Positions 1-795 of a DNA stretch of 64,000 nt are shown piece by piece. The stretch spans positions 2,040 to 66,039 of the forward strand of contig DAOUIF010000084.1 in NCBI GenBank assembly GCA_034423575.1, given 5' to 3'. The notes beneath the pieces were generated by a model. That model did not search any database. It was not told where the DNA came from and saw nothing but the letters and a program-made list of their open reading frames with translations. Within the stretch, counting starts at the first letter, position 1; the number at the start of each line of letters is the position of its first letter. This stretch comes from Dehalococcoidia bacterium. GTDB taxonomy: Bacteria; Chloroflexota; Dehalococcoidia; Lucifugimonadales; UBA3495. A program made the position numbers and the translations under genes.

Positions 1-795
1 GACGAGGCTCAGCGCAGAATCAATCAGGCAAGGCGCGGCAAAACTGATTCGGGGGACCGTGTACGCATCATTGGCTATGATGACATCCTCGAAGAAGACG
101 ATTACGAAGGTTTTCCCGAAGAGATGCTGACTATTCCTGGCAACGAGATTACGGAAATTGACGGGGAGGAGTGTTCATCTGGATTCCGGGCTTTCGTACA
201 TGCTCCATTCAAGGACGATGCTGAGGCGGAACGCAACGACACCAGCATCGCTTTACAGGTCACCCTGAAAGCTGAAGGTTCTTGTTGTCGCGCGTTGCTG
301 TTTGGAGACCTTAGTAACCCAACCGTGACCAGAATCTTCTCCATCAGCGACCAGCAAGACCTGGAGTGGAACGTATTGCTCGCCCCCCATCACTGTTCGA
401 AGACGGTCATGTACGTGCCTGACGATGACGGTAACGACGTACTCGACAGGGAGCTAATGTCCAAGATTGAGGACGCCGGACAAGAGTGCCGTTACATCGT
501 ATCAAGTTCCGAGCCAATCCCATCGCGCAACCAATCCGGCGACAACCCGCCCCACGCCCGGGCGAAGAACCGATACGAAGAGATAGTCGAAGAGGGTCAC
601 TTTGTTTGCACCCAGGAACATCCCTCGGAGGAGGCTCCTGAACCCATCGTCATACGAGTCACTGATAGCGGTTGCAATAAGGACTCGGCTGACGGATCGA
701 ATTCAATGGCCTCCGAGGGCGTCCCTGCCGCTTTACTCGGTGCCCGGGGCGACGATTCTCCCCCCACCACCGAAGTCGGTTTCGGAGCATCATGA
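1..795 (+). CDS. ComEC/Rec2-like metallo-beta-lactamase-fold hydrolase (MblB-like), 5' end outside window
   Basis: Frame +1 is open from base 1 (DEAQRRINQ...) to TGA at 793-795. It has C-terminal MBL motifs LLFGDL and LLAPHHCSK, an acidic low-complexity tail ending EVGFGAS, and an ATGA overlap with the next gene. Confidence 0.75.
   Translation, partial: DEAQRRINQARRGKTDSGDRVRIIGYDDILEEDDYEGFPEEMLTIPGNEITEIDGEECSSGFRAFVHAPFKDDAEAERNDTSIALQVTLKAEGSCCRALLFGDLSNPTVTRIFSISDQQDLEWNVLLAPHHCSKTVMYVPDDDGNDVLDRELMSKIEDAGQECRYIVSSSEPIPSRNQSGDNPPHARAKNRYEEIVEEGHFVCTQEHPSEEAPEPIVIRVTDSGCNKDSADGSNSMASEGVPAALLGARGDDSPPTTEVGFGAS

Follow-up and report, generated by a model that had tools for sequence, protein, structure and literature searches.

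A conserved glycine-bearing tail on the MBL-fold enzyme of a Dehalococcoidia 6A-MBL operon, a probable substrate of the adjoining E2-E1-JAB ligase

What purpose is served by a flexible tail at the end of a metallo-β-lactamase (MBL)-fold enzyme when the next gene encodes a ubiquitin-like conjugation ligase? The question is raised by the first genes of a 64,000-nucleotide (nt) stretch from a Dehalococcoidia bacterium (contig DAOUIF010000084.1, positions 2,040 to 66,039, forward strand), which as a whole is called the window here. Its first gene, MBL1 (1..795, plus strand), is the 3′ part of a gene for a 6A-MBL enzyme of the MBL fold, and it is followed on the same strand by a gene for an E2-E1-JAB fusion (792..3176). 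A first-pass annotation, made from the letters alone, had proposed that the MBL itself takes the place of ubiquitin in this pair. The analysis below leads us to regard the tail as flexible and strongly conserved and, judging by sequence comparison, as probably the substrate handle by which the E2-E1-JAB protein attaches the MBL enzyme to other proteins.

The MBL enzyme and its C-terminal tail

The 5′ end of MBL1, roughly a third of the gene, lies outside the window. The reading frame (plus strand, frame 1) is already open at base 1, and 264 codons and a stop are present, compared with about 386 residues in full-length relatives. A protein with 94% identity across the entire 264-residue fragment, P0001, served as full-length proxy. 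No family, MBL included, was recognised in a Pfam scan of the fragment, and a PDB sequence search with P0001 returned only noise. Against the NCBIfam model NF058524 (6A-MBL_enzyme, cutoff 220 bits), P0001 scored 298.8 bits; the window fragment scored 191.9 bits over profile positions 120-346, falling below the cutoff solely because the window edge cuts the gene. An AlphaFold2 model of P0001, built from a 73-sequence family alignment (A1), had a mean predicted local distance difference test (pLDDT) score of 86 and a predicted template modelling score of 0.87. Foldseek matched it to MBL-fold proteins of the PDB throughout, led by the β-lactamase-like (MBL) domain of ComEC (9ic4, E = 1.8e-11), with phosphorylcholine esterase Pce, RNase J and a phosphodiesterase next. 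Because Pfam was blank on the fragment, the MBL assignment rests on NCBIfam and on the predicted structure of P0001. Thus, the first-pass name MBL1 holds as regards the fold, with the reservation that the gene in the window is incomplete. Minus-strand open reading frames (ORFs) over 597-961 had no support and were disregarded.

The metal motif of the family is H-P-D-x-D-H (H79, D81, D83, H84), not the canonical HxHxDH, and H79, D81, D83, H84, H189, D225 and H252 are invariant in the MBL1 family alignments. With its metal-site residues invariant, the enzyme looks catalytically competent, and its modelled fold points to a ComEC-like phosphodiesterase or nuclease.

The end of the gene (703-795, plus strand, frame 1) translates to SMASEGVPAALLGARGDDSPPTTEVGFGAS followed by the stop codon TGA (793-795), the 28-residue tail quoted in the first-pass annotation corresponding to nt 709-792. 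In the P0001 model, pLDDT stays at 85-98 up to about residue 350 and falls to 46-57 for residues 351-386, where only a short helix is predicted. The description of a folded domain carrying a flexible tail that ends in Gly-Phe-Gly plus two residues was thereby confirmed, with the disordered part amounting to about 36 residues (685..792). Its distinct elements are Ala-Arg-Gly (742..750), Pro-Pro (760..765), Val-Gly-Phe-Gly (775..786) and a final Ala-Ser (787..792). Within the third of these, Phe occupies 781-783, and the last Gly, at 784-786, is the predicted site of adenylation and conjugation; the Ala-Ser extension, which overlaps the ligase start codon, is predicted to be removed by the JAB domain. 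Model NF058524 covers residues 16-346 of P0001, so that it ends at residue 346 and the conserved tail lies outside the definition of the annotation family.

A search over 5.8 billion proteins yielded 1,538 MBL1 homologues, the best 120 of which were examined; two of these were truncated. All 118 complete close homologues end in Phe-Gly or Tyr-Gly plus one to four variable residues. Numbered from this Gly (position 0, 100%), Phe or Tyr stands at −1 in 100% and Val, Thr or Ile at −3 in about 97%, while Pro-Pro at −8/−7 is 92-97% and Ala-Arg-Gly at −14 to −12 is 95-97% conserved. The linker N-terminal to Ala-Arg-Gly is variable in the same proteins. A more distant search without a word index, over 1.84 billion representatives at 50% identity, reached relatives at 27-51% identity. 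Among 80 distant representatives of at least 340 residues, 66 carried an aromatic residue followed by Gly, or Phe/Tyr followed by Ala, within the last seven residues, against a background of 5.5% in seven-residue windows inside the same proteins (binomial P ~4e-69). In 33 of these 66 the Gly or Ala is the exact C-terminus, and the others have one to five residues after it. An alignment of 70 sequences at 27-90% identity gave a similar picture, with the conjugation Gly nearly invariant and the fully invariant columns confined to the metal site and a few structural residues. Consequently, aligning the C-termini of MBL homologues encoded beside E2-E1-JAB genes, which the first-pass annotation had proposed as a check, gave a clearly positive result. 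Over 74 distinct loci the Gly is encoded by GGC (26), GGT (20), GGA (14) and GGG (14), the Phe by TTC (30) and TTT (20), and the Val by all four of its codons. Since all synonymous Gly codons are in use, the constraint on the tail acts on the amino acid and not on the DNA.

The ligase and the role of the tail

The tail is tied to its presumed enzyme by position. A locus scan that took alignment A1 as the query and sampled each species by a single genome returned 80 loci, spread over more than 10 phyla, including Chloroflexota, Acidobacteriota, Proteobacteria, Cyanobacteria, Planctomycetota and Actinomycetota. An E2 match directly follows the MBL stop codon in 78 of the 80, and matches to E1 and JAB come next where the contig is long enough. 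Of the other two loci, L053 stops at a contig end and L058 is disrupted. The same order of MBL and ligase was also found on metagenome contigs. The closest genome relative (95% identity) is a Dehalococcoidia metagenome-assembled genome (MAG), and the second is a SAR202 MAG. Distant 6A-MBL members occur on 281 plasmids, chiefly of Klebsiella, Clostridium, Escherichia and Acinetobacter. Three of these plasmid loci were examined, and each is a two-gene operon of an MBL and a 742-760-residue ligase, with tails ending PRAG|VSNQ (E. coli pSE11-2), KTYG|K (C. perfringens) and MPHG|AS (A. baumannii), the bar standing after the Gly.

The ligase of the window (794 residues, the 6A-MBL cap2_3 protein) contains the Pfam domains Prok-E2_A, ThiF and Prok-JAB in that order. 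It scored 347.1 bits against NCBIfam NF058523 (6A-MBL_cap2_3, cutoff 320), and it matched the PADLOC E1-E2 model for CBASS (antiphage signalling based on cyclic oligonucleotides) over nearly its full length (4.8e-77) as well as the JAB model (5e-28). By both NCBIfam equivalog models, the gene pair is a 6A-MBL anti-phage system. The putative E2 catalytic cysteine, Cys100 (1089..1091), and the putative E1 catalytic cysteine, Cys529 in an EPGCS motif where the crossover loop is expected (2376..2378), are each present in 70 of 70 family members. The glycines of the E1 nucleotide-binding loop, G354-C-G-A-I-G359 (GxGxxG; 1851..1868), are invariant; E1 residues D378, R389 and K401 and the JAMM active site E629, H693, H695, S703 and D706 (2676..2909) are kept in 69-70 of 70. 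All these catalytic residues stay invariant after the addition of plasmid relatives with 18-21% identity. As read from the alignment, the ligase therefore lacks none of the residues required for adenylation, for the two thioesters and for proteolysis at the JAMM site.

The junction of the two genes probably accounts for most of the short extension after the Gly. In the window the MBL1 stop codon overlaps the ligase ATG (792-794) as ATGA, with a GGAG sequence 6-9 nt ahead of the ATG. In 57 of 74 loci the ligase probably starts within the extension or the MBL stop codon, the commonest junction being a 4-nt overlap of the ATGA/GTGA type (26 loci). The extension would thus owe its existence chiefly to translational coupling with the ligase gene, which would explain that it is short, variable and sometimes absent. 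If it arises from the overlap, trimming by the JAB domain would be a necessity in the window subfamily and not a mere refinement.

By analogy with type II CBASS and related systems, we infer a course of events at the window locus that runs from the cleavage site through adenylation and thioester relay to a target and its consequence. The MBL enzyme would be made as a pro-protein, and its tail (…A-R-G-x3-P-P-x4-V-G-F-G-A-S) would serve the ligase as substrate handle. The JAB domain would cut after the Gly at 784-786 and release Ala-Ser, the E1 domain would adenylate the exposed Gly carboxylate, and the Gly would be carried in thioester linkage, first by E1 Cys529 and next by E2 Cys100, before being transferred to an amine, probably a lysine, of a target protein. 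The same JAB domain may also reverse the conjugate. On the same analogy, conjugation would prime or position the MBL hydrolase, with the neighbouring patatin-like phospholipase executing the defence.

These steps have precedents. Cap2 adenylates the C-terminal Gly or Ala of a CD-NTase (cGAS/DncV-like nucleotidyltransferase) and relays it via its E1 and E2 cysteines to lysines, and Cap3 cleaves at the CD-NTase C-terminus, including in peptide-bond fusions (PMC10097602). BilC cuts BilA between Gly97 and Ala98, a one-residue removal that makes BilA competent for its E1 (PMC10557695). These two proteases bear out the earlier statement that JAB enzymes trim or recycle such termini. The proposal that the MBL itself is the conjugated protein likewise gained support, from the conservation and predicted disorder of the tail, the linkage of the genes in 78 of 80 loci, the intact catalytic residues of the ligase, its family membership and the fact that a PDB search with the ligase family profile placed Cap2 first (7to3, 4.3e-30).

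Several observations weigh against this reading. The HMMER alignment to Cap2 stops before both catalytic cysteines, and the equivalence of Cys100 and Cys529 to Cap2 C109 and C548 (10.1101/2022.03.31.486616) is positional only. At T442-A443-S444 of the E1 domain (nt 2115-2123, INATAS), a conserved motif that comes after the Rossmann fold, the ligase aligns with the D-C-T-G of Cap2 (DCTGD). MoeB and ThiF carry an acidic motif of the DxxD type at this site. The Gly is never the last residue in the window subfamily; an extension is always present, so that activity needs the predicted JAB processing step.

Of the alternative explanations, a non-covalent role for the tail survives best. As a docking or regulatory peptide that is never transferred, the tail could tether the MBL to the ligase-patatin protein, act as a pseudosubstrate of the JAB or E1 domain, or inhibit the MBL itself. 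Conservation combined with disorder would suit any short linear binding motif, Ala-Arg-Gly and Pro-Pro lie away from the Gly as docking elements might, and the non-terminal position of the Gly fits as well. However, the thioester cysteines and adenylation residues are invariant across relatives with only 18-45% identity, which is hard to understand without a relay, and distant relatives keep just the near-terminal aromatic-Gly/Ala, as the last residue in half of the 66 motif-bearing sequences, the signature of a reactive C-terminus. We therefore regard a purely non-covalent role as unlikely.

Alternatively, the E1 domain might adenylate the tail and yield something other than a protein conjugate, such as a nucleotide-peptide, as MccB makes from MccA, or a thiocarboxylate, as MoeB and ThiF make on MoaD and ThiS. 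When the single window sequence was searched against the PDB, the best match of the E1 domain was indeed MccB (2.4e-10), and MoeB and ThiF matched too. The family profile nevertheless favours Cap2 (the 4.3e-30 given above) over MoeB (1e-18), with ThiF also lower, and the invariant E2 Cys100 and the fused isopeptidase-type JAB domain would have no role in a reaction of the MccB or MoeB type. Moreover, Pfam and PADLOC scans of the operon found no sulfur-transfer or peptide-export genes. A product of this kind is accordingly quite improbable.

The idea that the conserved gene end reflects a nucleotide-level constraint from the overlapping ligase gene, through its ribosome-binding site and start codon, can draw on the frequent overlap and the GGAG sequence, yet it was rejected on the codon counts as next to impossible for the motif, which is also kept where an intergenic gap separates the genes (L022, L032, L049, L069, L006) and whose Ala-Arg-Gly and Pro-Pro sit 25-50 nt upstream of the ligase start; it does account for the variable extension.

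Effectors, partner genes and surroundings

Conjugation of the MBL by its ligase would leave the question of what carries out the defence. Downstream of the ligase, on the same strand, lies a gene for a patatin-like phospholipase (4066..5208; Pfam Patatin, 1.8e-16), which is likely the effector of the operon. A comparison of the window patatin with all PADLOC models, those for CBASS effectors included, gave no match. The patatin is a separate gene in the window. In about half of the 80 loci it is fused to the C-terminus of the ligase, giving ligase ORFs of 1130-1277 residues (L011, L013, L015, L016, L019, L023, L025-L027 and about 30 more loci). This count includes the divergent patatins of L055 and L065, both of which were missed by tblastn and in which GGGxR and GxSxG motifs are visible. 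In about 20 loci the patatin is a separate downstream gene, and in five it lies upstream on the opposite strand. In L018 (2294-5791) the ligase is fused not to a patatin but to a calcineurin-like metallophosphoesterase, recognised by eye from its DxH…GNHD…GHTHH motifs, which suggests that effectors are swappable. A further arrangement is found in L003 (318-4615, on the contig of P0004), where the main system is preceded, 2.3 kb upstream, by a second, divergent 6A-MBL system in tandem. Its parts are a 371-residue MBL ending in SPRAG (NF058524, 380 bits), a 756-residue E2-E1-JAB protein and a 255-residue ORF (243 residues as called) with predicted hydrophobic transmembrane-like segments.

From locus to locus the effector is exchanged (patatin, metallophosphoesterase or membrane protein) or joined to the ligase, and the tailed MBL is the constant part. 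CBASS is built in a like manner, its conjugated protein serving as sensor and generator of the signal. The first-pass annotation had called the MBL a nuclease, which is plausible on the ComEC-like fold; by analogy with CBASS, a constant MBL accompanied by variable effectors is no less what a sensor or signalling enzyme would show, in keeping with the expression 'signaling enzymes' of a 2024 preprint (PMC11601596). The two-gene plasmid systems hold no other candidate effector, so the MBL there must also be able to act as one.

For the patatin-linked subfamily, a bolder version can be put forward, for which we hold out little hope. The covalent step might itself be the signal, with the pro-form MBL, through its ever-present extension, resembling a zymogen that JAB trimming licenses. 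Once mature, it would be attached either in cis to the ligase-patatin protein of its own system or to a phage protein, and would thereby directly switch on the fused phospholipase. If true, protein conjugation would replace the diffusible nucleotide messenger of CBASS.

Between ligase and patatin lies a second MBL-fold gene, MBL2 (3214..4065, plus strand), closely spaced after the ligase, with matches to Pfam Lactamase_B and PADLOC PDC-M48B (8e-90) and a canonical HxHxDH metal motif. This placement was seen only in loci of the SAR202/Dehalococcoidia type (L003, L004, L008, L009). In about 10 further loci, MBL2-like genes lie close to the system but in a different place. When nearby MBL2-type paralogues, which are not directly upstream of the ligase, were used as a negative control, no conserved C-terminal motif was found and their C-termini were unrelated. 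A role as second conjugation substrate was rejected since the C-terminus is not conserved, and MBL2 is probably accessory. In L008 (9581-10429), from the closest genome relative (Dehalococcoidia MAG OZ250155.1), the ORF at the start of a full-length MBL2 tblastn match has just 141 residues, which suggests a frameshift, a stop codon or an assembly error.

Divergent regulators lie upstream of the system in relatives, either a helix-turn-helix protein with Peptidase_M78 (CapH/CapP-like) or a WYL-domain protein (L001 4632-5767, L006 4614-5832 and L007 491-1817; L088 4000-4854 and L090 3997-4899). Regulators of this kind have been described for CBASS and for further defence operons. In the present locus, the corresponding region falls past the left edge of the window.

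Beyond the patatin, the operon is set in a stretch resembling a defence island (5449-14356). It comprises a gene like methyl-directed type II restriction enzymes (5449-5973, minus strand; PADLOC, 3.5e-32), a receiver-domain protein (6601-7812, minus strand) whose gene overlaps that of a protein with two GHKL-ATPase domains (7809-10007, minus strand), a C5 cytosine methyltransferase with an EndoIII-type Fe-S motif (10916-12835, plus strand) and a pentapeptide-repeat protein (12932-14356, plus strand). The practical result for the window is its annotation as a 6A-MBL system in a defence island. The locus is a member of the patatin-associated 6A-MBL subfamily with an extra MBL2 gene, in a SAR202/Dehalococcoidia-like genome.

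Relation to known systems

Van den Berg and colleagues reportedly demonstrated anti-phage activity of 6A-MBL in Pseudomonas aeruginosa in 2024, as relayed by papers citing them. Later papers list 6A-MBL among the defences against jumbo phages. Iyer, Burroughs and Aravind (2006) gave the first description of this operon type, their row '6a', and according to a 2024 preprint, which speaks of 'signaling enzymes', the enzyme of MBL pathways is conjugated in the manner of type II CBASS (PMC11601596). The conjugation model for 6A-MBL is therefore not new but already the working model of the field. A full-text search of the accessible literature, a scope that included neither van den Berg 2024 nor Ledvina 2023 in its published form, found no description of the MBL tail, and neither the pro-tail (the Gly with a short extension that in most cases overlaps the ligase start) nor the ligase-patatin fusions nor the extra MBL2 were found described there. 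Modest novelty lies in defining the motif of the pro-tail, in relating it to the overlap of the genes and in the fusions of ligase and effector.

Among bacterial defences that resemble ubiquitination and are of the Cap2 type, 6A-MBL is understood least, and in the accessible literature one reads only that its enzyme is conjugated to 'unknown targets'. The comparative data supply testable details, namely the position of the Gly (nt 784-786), the residues that catalyse each of the three ligase activities, a predicted mass loss of 158 Da (Ala-Ser) on maturation and the exchange or fusion of effectors beside a constant tailed MBL. They will help in designing the first biochemical tests and will not surprise a specialist.

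Compared with other 6A-MBL systems, the window has the same MBL enzyme gene directly upstream of an E2-E1-JAB fusion on one strand, and the two-gene plasmid members share the type of tail. The window subfamily differs in its lower score against NF058524 (299 bits for P0001 versus 344-426 bits for plasmid members), in the added patatin, fused to the ligase in many relatives, and in a tail of the form A-R-G…P-P…V-G-F-G plus one to four residues; the window locus further adds MBL2.

With type II CBASS (CD-NTase, Cap2, Cap3 and an effector, for example the patatin CapV), the operon has in common a Cap2-like E2-E1, a Cap3-like JAB and a patatin, a non-ubiquitin enzyme with a disordered Gly/Ala tail, and, in relatives, the CapH/CapP-like or WYL regulators upstream. 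In contrast to CBASS, an MBL hydrolase replaces the CD-NTase, no nucleotidyltransferase being found in the four operon genes with Pfam, PADLOC and NCBIfam, and E2-E1 and JAB form one polypeptide in the window. CD-NTases end exactly on Gly or Ala (PMC10097602), whereas the Gly of the window is third from the end and bears a short extension.

In this last respect the tail is like type II Bil, where a JAB peptidase clears a short extension from behind the reactive Gly, and E1 adenylates the Gly afterwards (BilC on BilA, PMC10557695). The Bil modifier, however, is a β-grasp ubiquitin-like protein and not an enzyme, and Bil has its E1, E2 and JAB as individual proteins, of the canonical and not the Atg7-like type. 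Instead of the β-grasp of Bil and Bub modifiers, the tailed protein of the window has a predicted MBL αβ/βα fold, and the ORF list showed no small β-grasp gene in the operon. Cap2 and the 6a-family E1s have been described as Atg7-like (10.1101/2022.03.31.486616), and the tail of the window does resemble the precursors of Atg8/LC3, though in resemblance only, the modifiers not being homologous. These precursors have an aromatic-Gly C-terminus with a short extension that is trimmed before their Atg7-type E1 acts. Atg8 itself has the ubiquitin fold, and it is trimmed by a cysteine protease, Atg4, and becomes joined to a lipid.

Thoeris offers a further parallel, since ThsB TIR proteins encoded with Cap2/3 carry the Cap2/3 tail (10.64898/2025.12.03.692087). 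ThsB is, like the MBL, a non-CD-NTase immune enzyme with an acquired conjugation tail; it differs in its TIR fold, its separate Cap2 and Cap3 genes and its established signalling role. Together with CD-NTases, Pycsar cyclases and ThsB TIR proteins, the 6A-MBL enzyme supports a general rule by which a short disordered tail with a Gly or Ala is a portable tag that places immune enzymes of quite unlike kinds under Cap2/Cap3 control.

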